Source of the DNA: a virus
Lineage: Duplodnaviria; Heunggongvirae; Uroviricota; Caudoviricetes
IMG/VR virus record: IMGVR_UViG_2778261089_000001
Span: 1-40,604 of that record
Strand: one strand, 5' to 3'
DNA: 40,604 nucleotides
A program made the position numbers and the translations under genes. This document shows, piece by piece, positions 19,503 to 40,604 of the stretch. Numbering within the stretch: position 1 is the first letter of the stretch; every line of letters starts with the position of its first letter. The notes under the pieces are model-generated. The model was given only the letters and a program-made list of their open reading frames with translations. It ran no database searches and was not told the DNA's origin.

Positions 19503-20009
19503 TTACTGTCCTAAAGCACTTTTTGCCAATATTGAAGCAATTGAAGCAAACGTCGGATTTTCCAATAGCTTTTGCCAAAGGCTTTTAACCTCTGGATCAT
19601 TGCAATGCTCTATAGCATCATGTAGTTGTTGAATGGTTATATTCTTTGTGATCGAATTATCATTACCGGCTTGAAAATCACCACCAGCATTAATAGCACC
19701 GTTAAACGTCAAATGGGTCGTAATCTGCTTCGGCTTCTCTTTTACATCCAATGCCTTCACTATCAATACCGCCAAATGTGAGTAGCCAGGGCAACCAACC
19801 TCGAGACTAATTTGCACCTCGTAATCAAGCACTTCAAATAGCCTTTCCCTGTCGACCATTTTTTGCACAATGATATCGCCGATATTAAATGGGCATAAGT
19901 CACTTTCAATAGGAATATACAATCGGCCTTTAGATGAGTCACGTTGACCATAATAGGTGGATGAATTAAAGGTAAAAGTATCTGGATAGAAAAATTGATC
20001 TGGTCTCAT
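19503..20009 (-). CDS. Hypothetical protein, AT-rich moron between lysis cassette and HNH/terminase
   Basis: 168-aa ORF in low-GC DNA with ~200 bp AT-rich upstream region; no recognisable family. Confidence 0.5.
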   Translation of the reverse strand: MRPDQFFYPDTFTFNSSTYYGQRDSSKGRLYIPIESDLCPFNIGDIIVQKMVDRERLFEVLDYEVQISLEVGCPGYSHLAVLIVKALDVKEKPKQITTHLTFNGAINAGGDFQAGNDNSITKNITIQQLHDAIEHCNDPEVKSLWQKLLENPTFASIASILAKSALGQ

Positions 20010-21202: not shown

Positions 21203-21529
21203 TTACTCCTTAGAGCCACCAAACTTATTACCGATTACTCTCATTGCAGCCCCACGAATAGCATCGACACCGATCAGCCCCACCCCACCACCAATGGCAA
21301 CAGAAAGCGATTTAGGCCATCCGACATACTCAAGAGCGGATGCAAAAGTCAGCGTCAGAGCGCCACAGAGTAGAATTTCGAGTGTTTTTCGCTTCCAGCC
21401 ACCACCACCGCCAAAATAGGCAATGCGCAAGCCAGCCATAACGATCGACATAATCACTGCGCCCAGTGGTGTGTCTCCACGCCACCAGCTCTGGACCAAC
21501 TCCAGCCAGGTATTTGGGTTATGAGGCAT
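21203..21529 (-). CDS. Holin (lambda S-like class I)
   Basis: 108 aa with hydrophobic helices, immediately upstream of endolysin. Confidence 0.65.
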   Translation of the reverse strand: MPHNPNTWLELVQSWWRGDTPLGAVIMSIVMAGLRIAYFGGGGGWKRKTLEILLCGALTLTFASALEYVGWPKSLSVAIGGGVGLIGVDAIRGAAMRVIGNKFGGSKE

Positions 21530-21670
21530 TTGTAGTTATCTCTCACCTCGCCGATACAGGAGGTGCAAATTGAGGGAGTACCACGAACCGCAAACCAGAA
21601 GCGGAAACGTAAAAGAAGCCGAGCCAATGGATAAGTACTAGATAGACCAAGCCCAACGAATACCAAGGCC

Positions 21671-21700
21671 CAGAAATGACAAAACCCGCTCGACGGCGGG
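21671..21700 (-). terminator. Rho-independent terminator on minus strand (candidate late-operon tR')
   Basis: Minus strand CCCGCC-GTCGA-GCGGG followed by TTTTGTCATTT, ~140 bp upstream of holin. Confidence 0.5.
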
Positions 21701-21860
21701 TTTAAGCTGTGTGGCAAAGTAACCACTCTTAACACGATATAATACTTTTTGCGTACGCGTTAACTTTTTCTGTAGTATTTAGTGTAAGATTCTTCACAAG
21801 ATAGATACTTTGGAGTACATGATGTAAAGTGCTGTATGCATAAACAGTACAAAGGATATC

Positions 21861-22382
21861 ATGATGAACAAATTAGCACGCTTATTATTAACAGCCAGCT
21901 CAATTGCACCTGTTTGCGCAACTCTATTTTTTATTGGATATGTAAAAGATACGGTTTGGCTGATGCAATATAGCTTATGCGTTGGCATAGCAAGTTGGTT
22001 ATTAGCAATAGGCCTGATTCAATATGCTGAGAAACAACTTGAACCTCTGACAAAAAATATTAGTTCAGTTTCTCCCGCTAACAAAGAAGTAACTAATTAT
22101 TTCTTAAGCTATTTATTCCCTCTCCTAGGAACAGATTCTATTGCTGAAAATAAAGCATATGCGTTATTCTTTTATTTATCATTGTTATTTTACATCAGCT
22201 TTTCCGAGAACTATAACTTTAACCCAGTATTGTCACTTATCGGTTATAAATTTTACGAAGCTGAAGATGACACCGGCGTAGGTTTTGTATTGATTTCTAA
22301 ATCAGTTATTACTGATATTAAAGATATCAAATTTACAGTTATTCAATTAACAGACTACACATTTCTACATGTTAAAGGATAA
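21861..22382 (+). CDS. Four-TM membrane protein (candidate KwaA-like component)
   Basis: 173 aa with four hydrophobic helices; AAAGGA RBS; AT-rich; opposite strand to flanking phage genes. Confidence 0.6.
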   Translation: MMNKLARLLLTASSIAPVCATLFFIGYVKDTVWLMQYSLCVGIASWLLAIGLIQYAEKQLEPLTKNISSVSPANKEVTNYFLSYLFPLLGTDSIAENKAYALFFYLSLLFYISFSENYNFNPVLSLIGYKFYEAEDDTGVGFVLISKSVITDIKDIKFTVIQLTDYTFLHVKG

Positions 22383-22387
22383 TAACC

Positions 22388-23272
22388 ATGGCACTTTTTG
22401 CAGTAATAGATAATACAATTGCAACGAGAATTGTTAGAGTCGAACTTGATGCAACAGCAAGTACTTCTGTTACGGCCATTTTCCAACAACAGCGTCAATA
22501 TTTTGAAAGTCATCATAACAATATGATACCATTCTATGCCGGTTATACACCAAAACATAGTGAGTGTTTTGAAATACAAAACTTTACTGATTCTGCACGC
22601 CTGATTGACGCAGTCAATAGGCCTACCGCCGTGCCTATCTGGGATCCTAGCCAAATTGATATTGGTTATATTAAAGCATTATTTGTTGGTGTTGACGCGC
22701 CAGCAAACCCCAATATTATTGCACTACAAACTTTCAACAAAAAACAAATCTTAGATACCTCAAAATCATTCTTTGGAAAGCTTTTTGCAAGCAAAACTAC
22801 CTTTAGTAAAGCTAATAGCATCGGTTTTAATGTTGATGATAAACTAGTTGCAATAATTATCAATGATACAATACGATTTAAGAGTTTCTTTAATCTAAGA
22901 AGCATTTTTGACATGTCGTCCTATTTTTCTGCTGCTACTGACCAAGAACTTAATGCATTTAGTCAACTTAGTGTATTTTCTACTCCCCAAGGTTTTGATC
23001 TAAAATCCGTTGCAGATACAGTGATAAGAAATAAAGTAACACTAATAAATCAGACTGGGATGCTAACACCCCAAAATATGTCAAAGTTTAAATCCGAAGC
23101 TGCTAAAGTTAATTTCCCCTTACAAACCATAATAGTTGGCGGTGTTGAGAAAATTGTCATGCCTTCATCAAAAAAAGAAATAAAAGCCCTTCTTGACTTT
23201 CTTGAGGAAGACATTTGGGTTTCTGGAATAAGTGGAAGACGCTTTAAATCGAATTCAAAGCGCCCAATATAA
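22388..23272 (+). CDS. Soluble 294-aa protein co-transcribed with the TM protein (candidate KwaB/DUF4868-like)
   Basis: Starts 5 bp after upstream stop with AAAGGA RBS; AT-rich; no recognised catalytic motif. Confidence 0.6.
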   Translation: MALFAVIDNTIATRIVRVELDATASTSVTAIFQQQRQYFESHHNNMIPFYAGYTPKHSECFEIQNFTDSARLIDAVNRPTAVPIWDPSQIDIGYIKALFVGVDAPANPNIIALQTFNKKQILDTSKSFFGKLFASKTTFSKANSIGFNVDDKLVAIIINDTIRFKSFFNLRSIFDMSSYFSAATDQELNAFSQLSVFSTPQGFDLKSVADTVIRNKVTLINQTGMLTPQNMSKFKSEAAKVNFPLQTIIVGGVEKIVMPSSKKEIKALLDFLEEDIWVSGISGRRFKSNSKRPI

Positions 23273-23293
23273 CTAGAAGACAGTTAAGAATAG

Positions 23294-23656
23294 TTAACAG
23301 GCAAGAGTGCAAACAATGCCTTCAATGAAACCAAGCGATGTTTGCAACTCTTTCCTGATAGTCCCATCCGAACACTTTCTCTTCTTAGCAATGGCTCGCA
23401 ATGAAATCCCTACCACAAAATGGGCTATAACTAACTCATACTCTTCTGGTTTGTACTTTCTTAATCTAGCTACGCACCCATCGATCATGAGCCCCTCATC
23501 ATCATCACACTGAATCCGGGACTTTTTGCCATGAGGTAAAAGCCCCTTGAAGCCAGCGGCTACCGGTTGCCAGTCCACTCCGCTATTGTCTGAAGCAGCC
23601 CAAGCTCCCCAACGATCCATCACTTCATACATATCACGCATCAACTTTCTCCACAA
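23294..23656 (-). CDS. Q: Late-gene antiterminator Q
   Basis: 120 aa; Q-family character and position at end of early-right operon. Confidence 0.7.
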   Translation of the reverse strand: MWRKLMRDMYEVMDRWGAWAASDNSGVDWQPVAAGFKGLLPHGKKSRIQCDDDEGLMIDGCVARLRKYKPEEYELVIAHFVVGISLRAIAKKRKCSDGTIRKELQTSLGFIEGIVCTLAC

Positions 23657-25486: not shown

Positions 25487-25862
25487 CCGCCGTTTTCTCG
25501 TACTTACTGATGGTGATCTCGACCTTCCCTTTCGGGATAACCGGTCCCCACTCCACCAGCATTCTTTTCACCTGTCTGTCGTCTTCCCACACACCCGCGT
25601 GGGTCAACGCGTCAAACAGCGCCTTGTTATAGTTGTCCAGATCGCGGATCCGGTTATCCGGAGGAAACAACACGATCTCCACTGAAGCAGGTGCCGACGT
25701 TGGTTTTGGCAGACGACGTAACTGCTCAACTATTGCTGCGCACGCCGCGCTCTGAAATTTTCGCCCCGCCGCGCTTATCAGGCTCTTACCAGCAAATGCC
25801 CCTTTGTTGGGGTGTCGCCAGTACGTGTTCACGCTGGGCGGGAAAGGCAGGATCAGCTTCAT
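25473..25862 (-). CDS. rusA: Holliday junction resolvase RusA
   Basis: 129 aa; RusA-family sequence with conserved acidic residues. Confidence 0.8.
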   Translation of the reverse strand: MKLILPFPPSVNTYWRHPNKGAFAGKSLISAAGRKFQSAACAAIVEQLRRLPKPTSAPASVEIVLFPPDNRIRDLDNYNKALFDALTHAGVWEDDRQVKRMLVEWGPVIPKGKVEITISKYEKTAGAAA

Positions 25863-26185
25863 ACTTTCAGGCCTCTCTCATGTAACCAGTGGGTTGCACG
25901 CAGCCTGGCGTTTTCCTCACCGGCAAGCAGTGAGCGGATAATCCCGACCGCCTCGCTGTCGTCGTCCTTCACCGCGGTATGAAGAGTGATACCCCGGGCC
26001 ACGCCACGCTTTATCGTGATGACGCCTTTTTTCTCCAGTGCGCGAAGATGTTCCACCGCTGCATTCACTGAACGGTATCCCAGCATGGTTGCCACCTCCT
26101 GATTGGTTGGCGGGAAGCCACGTTCTTTCTGGTAAGAAATCAGCATATCCAGCACCTGCTGCTGGCATTGAGTTAACGTCGTCAT
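25859..26185 (-). CDS. LexA-like DNA-binding domain protein
   Basis: N-terminus aligns with LexA winged-helix region (MLGYRSVNAAVEHLRALEKKGVI). Confidence 0.65.
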   Translation of the reverse strand: MTTLTQCQQQVLDMLISYQKERGFPPTNQEVATMLGYRSVNAAVEHLRALEKKGVITIKRGVARGITLHTAVKDDDSEAVGIIRSLLAGEENARLRATHWLHERGLKV

Positions 26186-33835: not shown

Positions 33836-35569
33836 ATGGCAAATCAAATAACTAAACTAAAAAAAATAAACGTTGTAAAATTCCGGGGGCTAAAAAATAT
33901 AAATATAGAATTTGGAACTCGCCTAACTGTTATTTGTGGGAAAAATGGCACATCTAAATCAACAATTCTTGGTATTATCGCCCAGATTTTCAGTTTTACA
34001 AAAGACTTATCTAAGAATCCTGAGATTGATTTAACACAATATAAGACATTAACTAATGGCAACTTCAAGTCAGCTTTCAGTGAGCATTTTAGACTCTCAG
34101 AACAATTTGATACTGCTGGTTCAATGGACGTCAAGATTAGTGTCTATGATGGAGCATTTAACAAACATCTTGAAAAACTAACATTGGGTCTATACAGTTC
34201 CAGCGACAGGGATAAATCAAGACCAATAGTCAGGGGTAATGATTCTATCCCGGGGAAAAACCAAAGTAGAAACGTTACCCATCCTGTTATTTTTTTAAGC
34301 TTAGCCAGGCTTCTCCCTATTACCCTTCGTACTGATTACTCAACAAGAGATGTTGAGTATATCAAGAAAAATGCTGATGATATAAGAATAATGAGTAATC
34401 AACTCTTATTAAAAAACAATGGATGTTCAGTAACAGCCACAAAAGGGATTATTGATTCAATGGTTGTACATGGTGATAATTATGACTACCAATCAGTTTC
34501 TGTTGGTGAAGATAATGTAGGACAATTAATCCAAGCAATATTTTCGTTTAAAAGGCTGAAAGAACTGTATGATGACTATCATGGAGGTATTTTATTAATT
34601 GATGAAGCGGATGCAGGTCTCTTCCCTGCGGCTCAGTTAGAATTAATTAACATCCTAACCAAAGCTGCTAAAAAATATGATTTGCAAATAATCATGACAT
34701 CTCATTCCCCACTAATAATTGAAGATGTTTTCAATCGTTCCAAACAAGACCCCAAAGGCTTCAAAACAATCTACCTAACAGATACTTATGGTGATATAAA
34801 AACAAAAGATAACTTATCATGGGCTGATATAAATGCGGATTTACATGTTGAGACGGTAAAAATCGATGATAAGATTAGTCTTCCAAAAGCTAACGTTTAT
34901 TTTGAAGATAAAGAAGGCTTTGATTTTTTCAAACAATTGATAACTGACAGAAGAATAAAAAAAATATTAAATCCATTAGGAAATATAAATATTAGCTGCT
35001 CTGCCATTTTGGATTTAATGGCAAGAAAAATCCCTGAATTTACAATTAAAAGTCTGGTGGTCTTAGACGGCGATGTTGCTCTAGATAACAGTGATAATGC
35101 AAAAAAAGCAAAAAAAGAGAAAAGCTTATGCTTACTTCCAAGCATCCTACCTCCAGACCAAATGATTTTCGAATTTTTATATAATTTACCTCCTGATGAT
35201 GTATATTGGAACAATACAAATAGGTTCACAAAAGCTGTATTTTTGAGAATAGCTAAAGATATAATCACATCATTAAAGATAGGTAACTACCCTATTAACT
35301 TACAAAACTTAATAGATAATTATAGAAAAGAAAATCAAAACCATGGTGGAACGGTTAGAAAACTTTTTAAAGATTTTGCACACACGCCTCAATTTCAGGC
35401 TCTAGTCAAAGGACGAGTTAAAAATAACCCATATCGATATTGGGTCAAGAAAAATCCTGAGCAATCTGATCGTTTCAGGAATGAACTAATAAAGAGCCTT
35501 AAAGTTATTATGACAAGTGGACATGGTGTTGATTCTGCTACCATCTCATCATATCTTTCAGATAACTAA
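33836..35569 (+). CDS. OLD-family-like ABC ATPase (Walker A GKNGTSKST, Walker B LLIDEADAG) with C-terminal Toprim-like region
   Basis: P-loop, D-loop and SHSP motifs; C-terminal EDKEG and VVLDGD acidic motifs; AT-rich; ORF track start at 33782. Confidence 0.65.
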   Translation: MANQITKLKKINVVKFRGLKNINIEFGTRLTVICGKNGTSKSTILGIIAQIFSFTKDLSKNPEIDLTQYKTLTNGNFKSAFSEHFRLSEQFDTAGSMDVKISVYDGAFNKHLEKLTLGLYSSSDRDKSRPIVRGNDSIPGKNQSRNVTHPVIFLSLARLLPITLRTDYSTRDVEYIKKNADDIRIMSNQLLLKNNGCSVTATKGIIDSMVVHGDNYDYQSVSVGEDNVGQLIQAIFSFKRLKELYDDYHGGILLIDEADAGLFPAAQLELINILTKAAKKYDLQIIMTSHSPLIIEDVFNRSKQDPKGFKTIYLTDTYGDIKTKDNLSWADINADLHVETVKIDDKISLPKANVYFEDKEGFDFFKQLITDRRIKKILNPLGNINISCSAILDLMARKIPEFTIKSLVVLDGDVALDNSDNAKKAKKEKSLCLLPSILPPDQMIFEFLYNLPPDDVYWNNTNRFTKAVFLRIAKDIITSLKIGNYPINLQNLIDNYRKENQNHGGTVRKLFKDFAHTPQFQALVKGRVKNNPYRYWVKKNPEQSDRFRNELIKSLKVIMTSGHGVDSATISSYLSDN

Positions 35570-35649
35570 TTGATTAAAAAGGGTTTTATGTGATGTCCAT
35601 AAAGCCCTTTTTTTTGATATACTCTAGATCTGACATTTAGAGGTATCAT

Positions 35650-36549
35650 ATGCGTTTTAACACCCCACTTCGCTATCCTGGCGGTAAAGGCAAGCTTGCA
35701 AATTTCATACTTCGGATTATTGAAGAAAATAATCTTTCGCCTATACATTATGCCGAACCATATGCTGGAGGGGCTGGCTTAGCATTGAAACTTTTACATT
35801 TAAATGCAGCTGAAAAAATCATCCTTAATGATATTAATATTTCTGTTTATGCTTTTTGGTACAGTGTATTAAATCATGCAGATCAATTATGTTCTTTAAT
35901 TGAAAGAACTGAAGTTACAATGGATGAATGGTTTAAGCAGAAAGATATAATTAATAATCCGAAAGACCATGATCTTTTAACAATTGGTTTCTCAACCTTT
36001 TTTCTCAATAGAACAAATCGTTCTGGAATATTAAAAGGTGGAGTAATTGGCGGTAAAAATCAAGAAGGAAAATGGAAGCTTGACGCTCGCTATAATAAGA
36101 GTGATTTGATTTCTCGAATCCATAAAATATCAGAAAATCGTCACAGAATAGATTTATATAACATGGATGCAATTGATTTCATTGAAAAAATAGTCATTCA
36201 ATTGCCACAAAACTCATTAACATATTTGGATCCACCTTATTACATAAAAGGTAAAGGTTTATATATCAACCATTATGATCATGATGATCATGTTAGGGTT
36301 GCAAAAGTCGTACAGAATAATATTAAAACGCCTTGGATTGTTTCTTACGATAACACTCCTGAGATCCAAGCTATGTATAAGACATCATCATTAGTATATG
36401 GAATAAACTACAGTGCTCAAGATCGGTACAAAGGATCTGAGGTAATGTTCTTCAGTGAACGGTTGAAAATCTTTAAAACAGATGATCCAACTAAGGTAAA
36501 AGCACCTGTATTTAAAAGAGGATATGTTGACGACCACATCCAGACATAA
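35650..36549 (+). CDS. D12-class N6-adenine DNA methyltransferase (Dam-like)
   Basis: Motifs RYPGGK, EPYAGGAG and catalytic DPPY; AT-rich. Confidence 0.85.
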   Translation: MRFNTPLRYPGGKGKLANFILRIIEENNLSPIHYAEPYAGGAGLALKLLHLNAAEKIILNDINISVYAFWYSVLNHADQLCSLIERTEVTMDEWFKQKDIINNPKDHDLLTIGFSTFFLNRTNRSGILKGGVIGGKNQEGKWKLDARYNKSDLISRIHKISENRHRIDLYNMDAIDFIEKIVIQLPQNSLTYLDPPYYIKGKGLYINHYDHDDHVRVAKVVQNNIKTPWIVSYDNTPEIQAMYKTSSLVYGINYSAQDRYKGSEVMFFSERLKIFKTDDPTKVKAPVFKRGYVDDHIQT

Positions 36550-36621
36550 AAGGAGCCGCAAAAGATCCGCAGAATAAAATAGTTAGTATTAATCGTTTTA
36601 TTTCAGCTAATTATAAAAATA

Positions 36622-36654
36622 CGGACTCGGGTTCAACTCCCGCCAGCTCCACCA
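36622..36654 (+). other. ssrA: tmRNA (ssrA) 3'-end fragment = attachment-site core at prophage boundary
   Basis: CGGACTCGGGTTCAACTCCCGCCAGCTCCACCA matches the ssrA 3' acceptor/T-arm; no full ssrA upstream (MTase gene occupies that space). Confidence 0.8.
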
Positions 36655-36701
36655 AAATTCTCCATCGGTGATTACCAGAGTCATCCGATGAAGTCCTAAG
36701 A

Positions 36702-36733
36702 GCCCGCACGGCGCAAGCCCTGCGGGCTTTTTT
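36702..36733 (+). terminator. Rho-independent terminator (native ssrA downstream terminator)
   Basis: GCCCGCA...TGCGGGC stem followed by TTTTTTG. Confidence 0.65.
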
Positions 36734-36787
36734 GTGCCCTCAATTTGTCCCGCGAAGTCCGAAGAAAACTAATTAAATCCGATCCTT

Positions 36788-36841
36788 TTAGGCACCTTGT
36801 TAGGCACCTCATAAAGCTTTATTGTTTTTTGAGGTGCCTAA
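36788..36841. repeat. Three copies of TTAGGCACC (two direct, one inverted) upstream of integrase
   Basis: Copies at 36788-36796, 36800-36808 and inverted at 36833-36841. Confidence 0.6.
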
Positions 36842-36859
36842 AACTATGGAAACCCGGCA

Positions 36860-38101
36860 ATGGCAAGACAAACCAAACCTCTATCCGTTAAAGAAATAGA
36901 ATCAGCCAAACCCAAGGAGGCGGACTACGTTCTCTATGATGGCGATGGCCTTGAGCTACTCATTAAATCCAGCGGGAGTAAAATCTGGCAGTTTCGCTAC
37001 ATTCGCCCTGTCACCAAGAAACGAGCAAAGAAGAGCATAGGCTCCTACCCGTCAGTTACCCTTGCCGATGCCAGAAACTACCGTGCAGAGTCCCGCTCAC
37101 TACTGGCTAAACAGATCGATCCGCAGGAACATCAGCAAGAACAATTGCGCAGTTCGCTGGAAGCCAAAACCAACACTTTCCAACTCGTAGCTGAACGTTG
37201 GTGGAATGTGAAGAAAGCCAGTGTGACAGAGGACTATGCGGAAGATATCTGGCGCTCTCTTGAAAGAGACGTCTTTCCTGCGATTGGCGACGTTAGCGTT
37301 ACAGATATTAAAGCTCATACACTGGTTCAGGCCGTACAACCGGTTCAGGCCAGAGGAGCACTGGAAACTGTTCGTCGCCTGTGCCAACGTATTAATGAGG
37401 TCATGATCTATGCCCAGAACACAGGGCTGATTGATGCTGTTCCCAGCGTTAATATCGGTAAAGCCTTCGAGAAGCCTCAGAAAAAGAACATGCCCAGCAT
37501 TCGACCGGATCAGCTACCTCAGTTAATGCAGACGATGCGAACAGCCAGCATTAGCCTTTCCACACGCTGCCTGTTCATGTGGCAACTTCTTACTATTACC
37601 CGCCCTGCCGAAGCGGCTGAAGCTCTCTGGGAAGAGGTAGACATAGAAGCGCGAGAGTGGAAGATTCCTGCAGCACGCATGAAAATGAACCGCGACCATA
37701 CTGTTCCATTGTCAGATGAAGCAATTGCGATACTAGAGATGATGAAGCCGTTAAGTGGAAATCGAGAATTTATCTTTCCCAGCCGCATCAAGCCAAACCA
37801 GCCGATGAACAGTCAGACCGTAAACGCATCGCTAAAACGCGCAGGTTTTGGTGGGGTGCTCGTTTCACACGGCCTGCGATCTATCGCCAGTACAGCCCTT
37901 AATGAGCAGGGATTTCCACCTGATGTTATTGAGGCTGCACTTGCTCATGTGGATAAGAATGAGGTTCGTCGTGCGTATAACCGTAGTGATTATCTTGAGC
38001 AGCGACGGCCTATGATGCAGTGGTGGGCTGATTTTGTGATGGCTGCAGATCACGGTAGTATGATTGAAGGAGGGATAAAGGCAATGCGGTTAGTTGGATG
38101 A
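36860..38101 (+). CDS. intA: Tyrosine integrase, P4/CP4-57 IntA-like
   Basis: 413 aa; N-terminus MARQTKPLS...YDGDGLELLIKSSGSKIWQFRY typical of P4-type integrases. Confidence 0.85.
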   Translation: MARQTKPLSVKEIESAKPKEADYVLYDGDGLELLIKSSGSKIWQFRYIRPVTKKRAKKSIGSYPSVTLADARNYRAESRSLLAKQIDPQEHQQEQLRSSLEAKTNTFQLVAERWWNVKKASVTEDYAEDIWRSLERDVFPAIGDVSVTDIKAHTLVQAVQPVQARGALETVRRLCQRINEVMIYAQNTGLIDAVPSVNIGKAFEKPQKKNMPSIRPDQLPQLMQTMRTASISLSTRCLFMWQLLTITRPAEAAEALWEEVDIEAREWKIPAARMKMNRDHTVPLSDEAIAILEMMKPLSGNREFIFPSRIKPNQPMNSQTVNASLKRAGFGGVLVSHGLRSIASTALNEQGFPPDVIEAALAHVDKNEVRRAYNRSDYLEQRRPMMQWWADFVMAADHGSMIEGGIKAMRLVG

Positions 38102-38181
38102 CATGTCGTAGCTAAAACCCGTTCTGTTTTTGGGTAGATTAACCTGAAGGTCTGCAATTTTAAATGACGCTGAAAGAAGTT

Positions 38182-38208
38182 AAACCCTGCTCTTAAGCAG
38201 GGTTTTTA
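38182..38208 (+). terminator. Rho-independent terminator (possibly bidirectional) between int and convergent large ORF
   Basis: CCCTGC-TCTTAA-GCAGGG followed by TTTTTAT. Confidence 0.6.
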
Positions 38209-38239
38209 TGATTTATTCTAATTTTGGTTTTGAATCTTT

Positions 38240-40543
38240 CTATTTTAAATCAGCCTTTGCGGCTCGAATATCTGCGTTTTTTGCTGAGTATTCCCATTCG
38301 TCAGCGATTCTAAATAGCATTGCAGAAGTACGGACGCAGTGGGGCATTGAATTTGCCCATTCTCGGTACTGCTCAGCTAATATCCTTTCTTGGTTTCCAC
38401 CTTCGTAACGCATACGAGCAAATACCCCCCTTTTATTGTACCTACCAATTTGTATACCTTGCTCTAACTCATCAGAAGATAATATTTCAATGATGTGCCG
38501 AATTGCTTCATGTGGCCAGGAATTATCTACTGAGCTATTAGGGGCATGTGCCAGAATTTTTCCTATTACATGATCAGTGATTTCTTGGCGATGATGCAAT
38601 TTTGCTAAATGGCGTACATTCTCACACCAATCTTCAAGTTTATCTTGATCAATTTCATTGTCTATCTGCCCTGGTAGTATTCGTAATTTTTCAAGTAATC
38701 TGTATATAGAAGTAGCTCTTTTAACTTCCAACTCCGATGGTTCTGTTTGTTCATCTTCGTCACTACGATATACAATACATATTGCTTCTATAAAAACCTC
38801 TGGCTTTTTCATCATTAGACGATGCAGGATAAGTGGCTCATCGCTATCCGGAAAACAAGGCAAGTAGGTCATTTCTTTAAATGCCAAATCTGTTTCAGAA
38901 ACATCGTTACGTTGTTTGAGTTCATCAAAAACTTTTTTTACATAGTACGATAGCATTGTATCAAATTGGATATCCTGGCTATTTATTTCTTTAACGACTA
39001 TATCTAGAAGATATAAAAGTGTTGTAGATGGAATCTCAGAAAGGCGTTGATTTGCTGATATAATAGCAGCAAGACCCCGGCCCCTTTCTATATATTTATC
39101 CATAAGAACAAATAAATCCGAAGTTTTACCCATCATTGCAATGGGTTGTTTTTGCAACCAATATTTTTCGTTGATGTTATCTTCAAACCCTTCAATAATG
39201 CTCCATATCTCTTGTGAGTCTCTTAACGATGCTAAGATTTTCCCAGCCCTATCAGGGGTAATTTTAAACTGTTTAAAATACACTTTTATTTTATTAAGCC
39301 ATTCAGCACCAAAGCATTCAACACCATATTGCATTAACAACCCACAAACTTCATCAATATTTTTTTTGTTGTTAATAAGCATTACAAACAAATCATTTAA
39401 TTTTTCTTCATCCAACGAGAGTGCTGATATATGCCTTGCTGCAATAAAAACATTATTAACTTGTTGAAAAAGGTCTTTCACCCCAGACAAACCTAAAGTA
39501 AAGTATATTTCCCTAAGTTTTTCACTTCGCATTTCTTCGACAGAAGAAAAAATTCCGCCAGCATTTTCAATTGACTCTTCAATATCAGAATCCCAATCAT
39601 TGAAAATCCATAAACTGGCTCTAACCATGTCAATTGGTTTATAATTATCAAGTATTTTCGCTATTTTTTCCATAGACTCAAATTTAAATGCCCAGTTCGC
39701 ATCTGAATATTTTTTATGGCGAGAATACTCATGACGCAAAGCCTCCCATACGATGAACTGATCCTCTTCAGTTTGTTGAGAAAGGCAAAGTTCAAGATGA
39801 GAAAGTGTTTCATCTATTGCATTCTCAGGGAATGAGCTTAAATGAGAGATTAGGATTTCCCATCTTGTTGGGAGTATACCTGCAAGTTTAATTGCTTCTT
39901 GGATAATAAAGATTTGCCCCTCCCAAACAACGCCCCACGTTAGTTTTTCTACATCTTTATCCGACTCTCTGAACTTCATTTTTTGGTTTTGATCAGAGGT
40001 ATCATGGGAGCGAGGAAGGAGATTTTGTAACAAACTCCACCCAATACTAGGAACAATAGTGATAATTTTTTTTATAATTGCATTTCTAACTTTTACTGGT
40101 GCCCATGTATTAGGAGACCATGCCAGAAAAATGGTTCTTAAACTATTAAGAGGGCGATCTGAGTAAGTTCCTCCGGGATCTATTACAGCGAGTTTTGCAA
40201 GACAGATTGCAGCGCGTAATAGATATGTTTGTTCCCAAGCCAAGGCTTCCAATGCCCATTTTAATCCATGATAATGACTTCGAGGAGTTAACAGCCCTTT
40301 ATCTTCATTGAATATTGGAGCAATCATTTCCCCATTGCCCTTAAGCAATTGCTCAAGGGCATCAAGGAAAGGGCCAGGGGCAGCTTCTGCCAGCAGCGGA
40401 AGTTGATCTCGCAAACTAACAAATAGTCGATGGTCGTTAGCAAGTCCCGGAATACTCTGAACTATTTTGTTAACAAAATCTTGGGGTGTCATACCAGTAA
40501 CCCGGAATTCGGCCTGTTCATGTAATATGATCTTACCCAGCAA
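38240..40543 (-). CDS. Large hypothetical protein (767 aa), AT-rich island cargo
   Basis: Long uninterrupted ORF in low-GC DNA; helix-rich composition, no recognised motif. Confidence 0.6.
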   Translation of the reverse strand: MLGKIILHEQAEFRVTGMTPQDFVNKIVQSIPGLANDHRLFVSLRDQLPLLAEAAPGPFLDALEQLLKGNGEMIAPIFNEDKGLLTPRSHYHGLKWALEALAWEQTYLLRAAICLAKLAVIDPGGTYSDRPLNSLRTIFLAWSPNTWAPVKVRNAIIKKIITIVPSIGWSLLQNLLPRSHDTSDQNQKMKFRESDKDVEKLTWGVVWEGQIFIIQEAIKLAGILPTRWEILISHLSSFPENAIDETLSHLELCLSQQTEEDQFIVWEALRHEYSRHKKYSDANWAFKFESMEKIAKILDNYKPIDMVRASLWIFNDWDSDIEESIENAGGIFSSVEEMRSEKLREIYFTLGLSGVKDLFQQVNNVFIAARHISALSLDEEKLNDLFVMLINNKKNIDEVCGLLMQYGVECFGAEWLNKIKVYFKQFKITPDRAGKILASLRDSQEIWSIIEGFEDNINEKYWLQKQPIAMMGKTSDLFVLMDKYIERGRGLAAIISANQRLSEIPSTTLLYLLDIVVKEINSQDIQFDTMLSYYVKKVFDELKQRNDVSETDLAFKEMTYLPCFPDSDEPLILHRLMMKKPEVFIEAICIVYRSDEDEQTEPSELEVKRATSIYRLLEKLRILPGQIDNEIDQDKLEDWCENVRHLAKLHHRQEITDHVIGKILAHAPNSSVDNSWPHEAIRHIIEILSSDELEQGIQIGRYNKRGVFARMRYEGGNQERILAEQYREWANSMPHCVRTSAMLFRIADEWEYSAKNADIRAAKADLK

Positions 40544-40604
40544 TAGTGGACACGCGGCTAAGTGAGTAAACTCTCAGTCAGAGGTGACTCACATGACAAA
40601 AACA

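Follow-up and report, generated by a model that had tools for sequence, protein, structure and literature searches.

The closest described relatives of the locus analysed here are the Kiwa anti-phage systems, which consist of the membrane protein KwaA and its partner KwaB. According to the published mechanism, KwaA forms tetramers in the inner membrane, and these keep KwaB dimers bound in a fence-like supercomplex (10.1101/2023.02.26.530102; Cell 2025). [quoted passage not shown] The DNA mimic Gam can inhibit KwaB. The supercomplex and the DNA binding of KwaB are known for the O55, ECOR8 and ECOR49 systems, and the mechanistic experiments were mostly carried out on one of these. With ECOR8, defence is lost upon deletion of either gene. 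Anti-phage activity was stated for all five cloned Kiwa systems, each with a distinct phage specificity; ECOR8 and ECOR12 KwaB belong to one cluster and were both purified (all 10.1101/2023.02.26.530102).

We analysed a window of 40,604 nucleotides, i.e. the whole stretch of viral DNA, which contains a cassette of two genes in an SfII-like lambdoid prophage of E. coli. The first gene, kwaA (21864..22382, plus strand), and the second, kwaB (22388..23272, plus strand, 294 aa), lie on the same strand with a gap of 5 bp, and each follows an AAGGA ribosome-binding site (21852-21856 and 22375-22379, respectively). Every flanking phage gene, namely Q, the holin, the GH104 lysozyme and Rz/Rz1, lies on the minus strand, and the GC content of the cassette is 0.29-0.38 versus ~0.49-0.59 in the flanks. 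The preliminary description of this DNA had claimed precisely this layout of two oppositely oriented, AT-rich ORFs with ribosome-binding sites, and the coordinates bear it out. The right border is formed by the antiterminator Q gene (23294..23656, minus strand; Pfam Phage_antitermQ PF06530, 1.5e-45; RefSeq 'antiterminator Q family protein'). The first late gene to the left encodes a lambda-family holin (21203..21529, minus strand; Pfam Phage_holin_3_1, 5.7e-25; PHROG 126 holin/anti-holin). The claimed position between Q and the lysis genes is correct as far as the Q-to-holin interval is concerned, but the holin is not a direct neighbour, as a conserved block at 21681-21769 intervenes. No RNA family of Rfam was found across the whole window. 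The two ORFs are real genes rather than chance ones: ~90 homologues of each protein were found in Enterobacterales, and kwaA directly precedes kwaB wherever a locus has both (75/75).

In the case of KwaB, the PADLOC KwaB model PDLC00225 matched the protein over its full length (2.3e-150), and the Pfam family KwaB/PF16162 (DUF4868) was detected on residues 108-281 with 32 bits (gathering cut-off 26.3). KwaB homologues likewise bear the label PF16162:KwaB. The RefSeq product name of WP_001163087.1 is 'Kiwa anti-phage protein KwaB-like domain-containing protein'. When the PDB was searched by Foldseek with the AlphaFold model of KwaB, the best four matches were all KwaB (9mrx_D, 9mtn_B, 9mtn_K, 9nyu_A), with a probability of 1.0, E values of 1e-5 to 1e-4, a TM-score of ~0.5 and 11-13% identity over ~305-317 aligned columns; the next match after these KwaB chains had an E value of 0.2. 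The predicted fold comprises, as in KwaB, an N-terminal Rossmann-like domain and a C-terminal DUF4868 domain, and the moderate TM-score would be consistent with a hinge between these two domains or with model error. A disordered loop at residues 122-150 of the model lies about at the flexible DE loop of solved KwaB. Profile searches (Pfam, PADLOC, NCBIfam) detected no nuclease, protease or NADase domain. Overall, KwaB is the soluble DUF4868-family partner and the predicted DNA-binding effector of Kiwa.

In the case of KwaA, the PADLOC model PDLC00216 matched residues 1-172 of 173 (1.9e-83), and 11 more PADLOC KwaA models also matched. The Pfam label PF28043:KwaA is found on KwaA homologues, including a 99%-identical cluster representative. 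The NCBIfam equivalog NF041622 ('anti-phage protein KwaA') scored 46 bits against a cut-off of 100. This model evidently represents another Kiwa cluster, so that the low score lowers the equivalog status and not the Kiwa membership. KwaA is probably 172 aa long with its start at 21864, because homologues begin with MNKLARL and this second ATG is better spaced from the ribosome-binding site; the alternative ATG at 21861 would give 173 aa. The AlphaFold model of KwaA contains helices at residues 2-28, 32-59, 78-96 and 98-114, the last two being TM3 and TM4, and strands at 63-72 and, in the C-terminal part, at 130-136, 141-146, 157-162 and 167-170. According to the model, KwaA spans the inner membrane with four helices, and its TM2-TM3 loop and C-terminus together make up a beta-rich cytoplasmic part, as in solved KwaA. 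Foldseek again retrieved KwaA for all of the top 7 PDB matches (9mrx_A, 9mrg, 9mrr), with E values of 4e-6 to 3.5e-5, TM-scores of 0.53-0.68 and 18-19% identity. The first gene had been described beforehand as a four-TM protein of 173 aa: the four helices are present in the model, but strong Kyte-Doolittle hydrophobicity is confined to TM1 and TM2, and the probable length differs by one residue.

Altogether, the kwaAB cassette is very probably a complete short Kiwa defence operon of the 'ECOR12 type', which the SfII-like prophage carries as a lysogenic-conversion moron. The two AlphaFold models (pLDDT 77.7 and 78.1) retrieved, at E<=1e-4, no chains other than solved KwaB and KwaA, and this fold comparison was the only link to the solved Kiwa structures: PDB sequence searches with KwaA, KwaB or a 30-sequence KwaB profile returned no Kiwa chain. 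A locus identical at 100% over 1801 bp is present in E. coli H1827/12 (assembly GCF_001678925.1), and Table S8 of the Kiwa paper includes this assembly with KwaB WP_001163087.1 (10.1101/2023.02.26.530102). In the part covered of Tables S9 and S10 (mobile-element class), no row for the operon was found. Exact matches of the primers FN0164 and FN0165, used for 'ECOR12 Kiwa' with its native promoter, lie at 21530-21551 and 23250-23272. Because both cloning primers match the window exactly, the published ECOR12 amplicon corresponds to 21530-23272, the identity of the ECOR12 copy with the window being established at the primer sites only. Two near-identical KwaB alleles, WP_001163087 and WP_001163088, exist in E. 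coli (~98.6% DNA identity). Thus, the suggestion of a Kiwa pair (KwaA plus KwaB/DUF4868) made from the sequence was right, as seen in the PADLOC and PF16162 matches of the 294-aa protein, the structure predictions, the Kiwa catalogue and the ECOR12 primers, and these matches count against the fallback of an undescribed membrane-anchored exclusion system. Roles in lysis or as an antiholin, as a toxin-antitoxin pair or in transport were rejected, since the searches revealed no corresponding domain and the pair is found outside prophages as well. The pair is nevertheless already known, since it is annotated in RefSeq and included in the catalogue of 9,797 Kiwa operons, and a primer-identical copy was tested. 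As a gene finding, it adds nothing new to a system described in 2018 with structures from 2025.

A detail that seems not to have been reported is the conserved LexA box over the kwaAB promoter. The best sigma-70-like match in the intergenic region upstream of kwaA, obtained in a looser scan, lies at 21802-21830 on the plus strand (-35 TAGATA at 21802-21807, 17-nt spacer, -10 TAAAGT at 21825-21830). The promoter is placed here as a putative element, because a generic promoter scan of this region gave nothing above threshold and no strong sigma-70 consensus. Among relatives, a TAnnnT hexamer adjoins the box in 22/37 anchored upstream regions, and in the closer ones an (A)TGGAT/TAGATA element is found ~17 nt further upstream. 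The box itself, TGCTGTATGCATAAACAGTA, spans 21830..21849 between the -10 element and the kwaA ribosome-binding site, with the core CTGT-N8-ACAG at 21832-21847. This core occurs only once in the 40.6-kb window, and the box is also the best 20-mer match of the window to TACTGTATATATATACAGTA, at 16/20 (next best 14). Arms of CTGT and ACAG with an AT-rich spacer and flanking TA are the gammaproteobacterial LexA consensus.

To describe the conservation of the box, upstream regions of homologous loci were compared. The motif lies 15-29 nt upstream of kwaA in 40/42 distinct upstream sequences. In the 60-nt upstream windows of 46 loci, 38 perfect motifs were observed and 0.12 expected, an enrichment of ~300-fold. 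The box-bearing kwaAB loci, ~40 in number, are divergent and lie in different mobile elements. One outgroup, the Pseudomonas phage PfAC02a (KwaB 33% identity), is without the box. Regarding other Kiwa clusters, a KwaA profile search gave further members of the PF28043 clade only, IMG/VR contained no exact match to the ECOR8 primer, and matches of the ECOR49 primer on two unrelated GC-rich contigs were rejected as chance. The possibility that the box is a property of the insertion slot and not of Kiwa was checked on other cargo cassettes of the same slot and dropped, as no SOS box was found upstream in 9/9 of them.

It is unlikely, though worth weighing, that the palindrome acts as a hairpin of the 5' leader RNA or is bound by a different regulator, instead of being an operator of host LexA. 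Its TACTGT/ACAGTA arms could form a 6-bp stem. However, the arms read CTGT/ACAG throughout (CCAG in six cases) and show no compensatory changes, whereas the 8-nt spacer varies freely; this is the pattern of a DNA motif read by a protein rather than that of an RNA helix. As for another protein, the prophage encodes an early 108-aa protein at 25859-26185 that has a LexA DNA-binding domain, with a recognition helix resembling the LexA one, and no peptidase domain. The box is nonetheless also found where this phage gene is lacking, i.e. in the Salmonella island, the P4-like satellite, the plasmid-like contig and Gilliamella, and its motif, spacer and flanking TA fit the LexA consensus. We therefore lean towards host LexA, and consider it rather probable that host LexA directly controls the ECOR12-type Kiwa clade (short KwaA, PF28043) wherever this clade is carried, so that its immunity would be SOS-inducible. 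The contexts to which this reading extends are the lambdoid Q-PR' slot, a cI-adjacent slot, a P4-like satellite, a plasmid-like contig and a chromosomal island.

With host LexA as the regulator, the conserved box suggests the following scheme. Transcription of kwaAB would start from its own promoter at ~21802-21830, overlapped by the box, with the start site expected within the box at ~21836-21840; LexA would keep expression low in the lysogen, the SOS response would raise it, and the same signal would induce the S24-type repressor of the prophage. RecBCD processing of phage DNA could feed into this circuit via RecA activation, and Gam could blunt it, both links being our extrapolation. More speculatively, the 108-aa LexA-like protein could re-occupy SOS boxes after LexA cleavage and thus could silence kwaAB during the prophage's own lytic growth. 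If true, Kiwa would be an anticipatory defence, raised by the DNA-damage signal that triggers prophage blooms, and would stand among the few defence systems with a simple, testable SOS link. The box may also affect how experiments with 'native promoter' constructs are to be interpreted across recA/lexA backgrounds. A report of LexA or SOS control of Kiwa was not found in the searchable literature, and the Kiwa paper mentions neither the prophage slot nor such control (10.1101/2023.02.26.530102).

By analogy with the published systems, the ECOR12-type kwaAB would work by the Kiwa mechanism and act against phages and plasmids. Could this short clade, as a true Kiwa homologue, nonetheless work unlike the O55/ECOR8 model, with another trigger or an effector activity different from passive DNA binding? 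Its identity to the solved proteins is only 11-19%, both proteins are ~20 residues shorter than those of O55, each cloned system has its distinct phage specificity (10.1101/2023.02.26.530102), and the SOS box is seen, as far as sampled, in the ECOR12-type clade alone. Nevertheless, both proteins retain the overall fold and the order of domains, with nothing else alike in the PDB, ECOR8 and ECOR12 KwaB share one cluster (10.1101/2023.02.26.530102), and no nuclease, protease or NADase domain was detected. We consider a deviating mechanism quite improbable.

The surroundings of the operon were described by alignments of five prophages. These are conserved from the holin to ~21769 and then diverge, and on the Q-proximal side the divergence extends up to ~23320-23360. 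The variable cargo module at 21770..23320 thereby reaches from the side of the Q stop codon to the block at 21681-21769, and comprises kwaA and kwaB with their promoter as well as the final ~10 codons of Q. The block (minus strand, upstream of the holin) is kept in the SfII, SfIV, cdtI, mEp460 and Stx2 phages and contains a terminator-like, tR'-like hairpin, AAACCCGCCGTCGAGCGGGTTT, followed by a T-run (21703-21682). In an Stx2a phage, the late-promoter block lies 16 bp past the Q stop codon. The block is probably the PR'/qut promoter. Because kwaAB is on the opposite strand and upstream of this late-promoter block, it lies outside the late transcript.

In sister prophages, kwaAB is swapped for unrelated cassettes while the lysis genes are kept, and at least 10 other opposite-strand cassettes occupy the interval between Q and the late promoter. 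SfII-like prophages thus have a rich cargo hotspot in their Q-to-PR' slot, filled by cassettes on the opposite strand, and the earlier view of an independent moron operon in a Q-to-lysis cargo slot agrees with these alternative cargoes. A related Q is found in ~600 complete E. coli genomes. As most of the alternative cassettes sampled have no match in PADLOC v2, the slot is a cheap place to seek undescribed defence systems.

Among complete E. coli genomes, 33 carry kwaAB copies with 98.5-100% identity, and so do 16 contigs of IMG/VR. The pair is not confined to prophages: it is also carried by a Salmonella island, a P4-like satellite and a plasmid-like contig. kwaAB of the same clade adjoins Psu, Ogr/Delta and an integrase in a Klebsiella P4-like element, and the repressor gene in a Gilliamella prophage. 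That the cassette is a passenger, silent or in decay, or serves lysis or late-gene control instead of defence, as its location between Q and the late promoter beside the holin and its small membrane protein (as in antiholins and lysis regulators) might suggest, is hardly credible given two intact ORFs with end-to-end family-model matches, these near-identical copies, the occurrences outside prophages and sister prophages that replace the pair and retain their lysis genes.

Compared with the described Kiwa systems, the defence operon analysed here is closest to ECOR12 Kiwa (Zhang, Todeschini et al.; pUOS018, pUOS124; ECOR12 genome QOWX00000000), which consists of the same two genes and their native upstream region. 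With O55:H7 RM12579 Kiwa (Doron et al. 2018; 9mrx, 9mrg, 9mrr, 9mtn, 9nyu) it has in common the gene order kwaA-kwaB, a four-TM KwaA with a cytoplasmic beta domain, and a KwaB with an N-terminal alpha/beta domain followed by DUF4868 (Foldseek probability 1.0). The two differ in sequence (identity 11-13% in KwaB and 18-19% in KwaA), sequence-only searches make no link, and KwaA and KwaB are here each ~20 residues shorter (O55 target lengths 195 and 315). O55-type and ECOR12-type Kiwa fall into different phylogenetic clusters (10.1101/2023.02.26.530102). Kiwa is also known as interchangeable cargo in hotspots of P4-like satellites (Rousset et al. 2022, PMC9122126). The hotspot of the present case, by comparison, is the Q-to-PR' interval in SfII-like lambdoid prophages, where the cassette is oriented opposite to the phage genes.

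Among prophage-borne systems, lambda RexAB is likewise a two-gene exclusion system with a membrane component that is expressed in the lysogen, and it acts as an abortive ion channel. Lambda carries rexAB next to its repressor gene, and the position of kwaAB beside the repressor gene in the Gilliamella prophage is comparable. However, RexAB and Kiwa have no homology, and Rex is abortive whereas Kiwa is reported as non-abortive. Regarding regulation, the control of defence is coupled to DNA damage by the WYL regulators CapW and BrxR and by a Moraxellaceae activator (PMC12392091). In these systems, as proposed here, defence genes are raised by a DNA-damage signal. They use dedicated neighbouring regulators, whereas the kwaAB cassette carries no regulator gene and host LexA would act on it directly.

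Two plus-strand open reading frames 5 bp apart, kwaA (21861-22382, 173 aa) and kwaB (22388-23272, 294 aa), make up the cassette between the antiterminator gene Q and the holin gene. All neighbouring phage genes are on the minus strand: to the right Q (23294-23656; PF06530, 1.5e-45) together with DUF968, KilA-N, RusA and other genes, and to the left the lambda-family holin (21203-21529), a GH104 lysozyme and Rz/Rz1. The GC content of the pair is 0.29-0.38, compared with about 0.49-0.59 in both flanks. An AAGGA ribosome binding site precedes each gene, at 21852-21856 for kwaA (4 nt from the first ATG, 7 nt from the second) and at 22375-22379 for kwaB (8 nt from the ATG, within the 3' end of kwaA). 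Because all KwaA homologues begin with MNKLARL and the second ATG is better spaced from the ribosome binding site, KwaA probably starts at 21864 and has 172 rather than 173 residues.

The preliminary description had noted this low-GC pair with its ribosome binding sites, opposed to the flanking genes, and had proposed that it may encode Kiwa (KwaA plus KwaB/DUF4868). Both the observation and the interpretation are right. Along its whole length the 173-aa protein matches the PADLOC KwaA model PDLC00216 (1.9e-83), and eleven further PADLOC KwaA models match it too. The HMM search suggested there for the 294-aa protein gave an end-to-end match to PADLOC KwaB (PDLC00225, 2.3e-150) and 32 bits against Pfam KwaB (PF16162, the former DUF4868), passing the gathering score of 26.3. 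The NCBIfam KwaA equivalog was below its cut-off (46 bits, 100 required), and searches of the PDB by plain sequence or profile returned no match for the pair. Thus, it is far from the solved system of E. coli O55:H7.

Structure prediction, also suggested at the outset, led to the same family. AlphaFold models of KwaB and KwaA were built from alignments of 30 and 38 homologues, respectively. In the case of KwaB (pLDDT 77.7), the best four Foldseek matches in the PDB were KwaB chains of 9mrx, 9mtn and 9nyu (probability 1.0, TM about 0.5, identity 11-13%), and the match after these had an E value of 0.2. In the case of KwaA (pLDDT 78.1), the best seven comprised KwaA chains only, from 9mrx, 9mrg and 9mrr (TM 0.53-0.68, identity 18-19%). 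In the KwaA model, long helices span residues 2-28, 32-59, 78-96 and 98-114, the TM2-TM3 loop contains a strand region, and the C-terminus forms four strands; solved KwaA has been described with this architecture. The four transmembrane segments expected initially agree with the helices of the model; simple hydropathy is clear for TM1 and TM2 only.

The pair is not new but a member of a known family, catalogued and in effect already functionally tested. E. coli H1827/12 (NZ_CP013031) has a 100% identical copy of the 1801 bp surrounding the cassette, and among 5,426 complete E. coli genomes 33 have this stretch at 98.5-100% identity. In RefSeq, the product of the second gene is called 'Kiwa anti-phage protein KwaB-like domain-containing protein' and, in newer annotations, that of the first 'KwaA family protein'. 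Table S8 of Zhang, Todeschini et al. (bioRxiv 10.1101/2023.02.26.530102; Cell 2025) lists GCF_001678925.1, which is strain H1827/12, with KwaB WP_001163087.1, the KwaB of this locus. The primers FN0164 and FN0165 used for 'ECOR12 Kiwa' in that work match exactly at 21530-21551 (+) and 23250-23272 (-), so one end of the published amplicon lies immediately upstream of the start codon of the holin gene and the other at the stop codon of kwaB. Each of the five Kiwa systems that were cloned was active against phages, with specificity differing by system, and four of the five lowered conjugation (10.1101/2023.02.26.530102).

According to the same study (10.1101/2023.02.26.530102), Kiwa is a fence-like supercomplex of KwaA tetramers and KwaB dimers located in the inner membrane. 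It collects where phages attach, its trigger comes from outside, and escape mutations map to tail fibres. The DUF4868 domain of KwaB binds ssDNA and dsDNA without cutting; replication is impaired, late transcription breaks down, and the cell stays alive. Gam of lambda binds KwaB in competition with DNA, and RecBCD is a competing sink for Gam. By analogy, the pair studied here most likely works in this way, and we consider it improbable that its clade departs from the published model in the detail of trigger or effector.

Regarding the location, a DUF968-Q ... holin backbone with a related Q was found in 613 genomes. The cargo differs among ten sampled prophages and always opposes the phage-gene strand; in sister prophages Kiwa is replaced by at least ten other opposite-strand cassettes. 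These include a 238-aa and a 190-aa protein with an MBL-fold hydrolase (L002, 1039-3439; weak PADLOC matches for the MBL protein only, best 2.2e-11), proteins of 343 and 179 aa (L003, 1894-3457) and of 87 and 246 aa (L005, 2435-3435), both sets lacking any database match, and a Pfam NA37 nucleoid-associated protein with a 404-aa protein (L004, 1074-3466). L006 (321-3464) carries a 1047-aa metallophosphoesterase (PADLOC PDC-S60, 1e-94), L007 and L008 (2205-3932 in L008) a TIGR04255-family protein with two small genes, L009 (2499-3960) proteins of 308 and 182 aa, L010 (2456-3944) proteins of 301 and 191 aa (PADLOC PDC-M53A/B) and phage SfII (2216-3830) its genes 49 and 50. The cassettes of L004, L007, L008 and L009 had no PADLOC match. 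Altogether, the slot holds two PADLOC candidate systems (PDC-S60 and PDC-M53); among the other cassettes checked, those of L002-L005 and L007-L009, none gave a strong PADLOC v2 match. The uncharacterised cassettes are candidates for undescribed defence systems, a lead of moderate interest.

Alignments place the variable module at 21770-23320, the left border at about 21770 and the right one at about 23320, inside the last Q codons. The adjoining conserved block (21681-21769, minus strand) is common to SfII, SfIV, cdtI, mEp460 and Stx2 phages and includes, on the late strand, a tR'-like hairpin resembling a terminator (21703-21682); in an Stx2a phage its counterpart lies 16 bp past the Q stop codon. 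On these grounds the block is probably the PR'/qut/tR' late-control module, and the insertion point of the cargo would be between Q and its promoter, so that the late transcript would not include it. A second low-GC moron is found between the lysis and HNH/terminase genes (19503-20009, minus strand, with an AT-rich stretch to about 20250; GC 0.31-0.42). Its 168-aa product belongs to PHROG 5789, a family of unknown function, with no match in Pfam, PADLOC or NCBIfam; sister prophages carry an iss lipoprotein, DUF4406 or DUF1398 at this position. Past the prophage integrase, about 35,100-40,600 (33531-39389 in L001) holds a second integrase-domain gene, a serine recombinase and two ParB-family genes, with an IS1 just past the window end in the matching genome. 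This region resembles an integrated element of its own, adjacent to the prophage.

When kwaA upstream regions from three unrelated contexts were aligned, a sole island of identity was left: TGCTGTATGCATAAACAGTA in the window (21830-21849), TACTGTACAAATAAACAGTA in Proteus and TACTGTATATAAAACCAGTA in Salmonella. Its core, CTGT-N8-ACAG, is the gammaproteobacterial LexA consensus. This core occurs once in the 40.6 kb window, and the site is also the best 20-mer consensus match there (16/20, next best 14). We then surveyed 72 kwaAB loci from IMG/VR, GTDB genomes and assembly look-ups, representing 42 distinct upstream sequences. The perfect motif was present in 34 and CTGT-N8-CCAG in six, always 15-29 nt upstream of the kwaA start, with KwaB identity ranging between 100% and 38%. 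The two exceptions were a 7-nt-spacer locus with degraded kwaB and a 28%-identical pair in a Thermoanaerobaculia MAG. In 60-nt upstream windows of 46 distinct loci, 38 perfect motifs were observed, compared with 0.12 expected from the motif density in the remainder of these loci. The position is shared by L011-L020, L022-L082, L086-L090, L093-L094 and L098, and the box extends to a more distant sub-clade (E. coli plasmid-like contig, Klebsiella satellite, Photorhabdus, Gilliamella); Avibacterium has a version with one mismatch, and the Pf-phage Kiwa of Pseudomonas (33% identity) has none. None of nine other cargo cassettes checked in the slot carried the box, which thus travels with kwaAB and not with the site.

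The palindrome might alternatively act as an RNA hairpin, but its arms are invariant, with no compensatory changes, which argues against this. Fixed arms around a freely variable 8-nt spacer fit a DNA motif read by a protein. A TAnnnT hexamer adjoins the box in 22 of 37 cases, and in closer relatives it is preceded, at a distance of 17 nt, by a TAGATA/(A)TGGAT element. The promoter in the window would accordingly have its -35 element at 21802-21807 and its -10 element at 21825-21830, with the box covering the likely start site, as is classical for LexA repression. We infer from sequence that LexA represses this Kiwa clade and that SOS induces it. The repressor of the prophage itself is an S24 'LexA family protein', so that the prophage would be induced by the same signal that would relieve repression of kwaAB. 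The Kiwa preprint (10.1101/2023.02.26.530102) does not mention LexA or SOS, and full-text literature searches combining Kiwa or DUF4868 with LexA or 'SOS box' gave nothing relevant. The conserved predicted box thus appears to be an unreported feature and is a lead of moderate interest, beside the low interest of the pair itself.

Further perfect AT-rich LexA boxes, e.g. CTGTATAAATAAACAG, lie 3.2-5.2 kb downstream of kwaA in several related prophage contigs (L040, L043-L045, L048-L049, L070-L071, L080), which suggests other SOS-controlled prophage genes. The early operon also encodes a 108-aa protein (25859-26185, minus strand) with a LexA DNA-binding domain only (PF01726, 2.9e-19; 7e-16 to the E. 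coli LexA DBD structure 1lea) and no S24 peptidase domain. Its recognition helix, SVNAAVEHLRAL, is near that of LexA, SPNAAEEHLKAL, and it is conserved in sister prophages regardless of slot cargo. It would be a prophage-made, non-cleavable LexA look-alike; that it binds SOS boxes, including that of kwaAB, is pure speculation.

Relatives of the pair occupy the Q-holin position in Proteus mirabilis prophages (KwaB 52% identical, different backbone) and in Klebsiella phage ST846-OXA48phi9.1 (47.5% identical). Other kwaAB pairs adjoin a DUF87 ATPase and a methyltransferase in a Salmonella island, or are found in a Klebsiella P4-like satellite, on a plasmid-like E. coli contig and at the end of a Photorhabdus prophage. 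In a Gilliamella prophage (L093/L094, 5001-6396), a GamL homologue is located about 1 kb downstream of kwaAB, notable since Gam is the published Kiwa inhibitor. There, kwaAB with its SOS box lies directly downstream of an S24 cI-like repressor, the position that rexAB takes in lambda.
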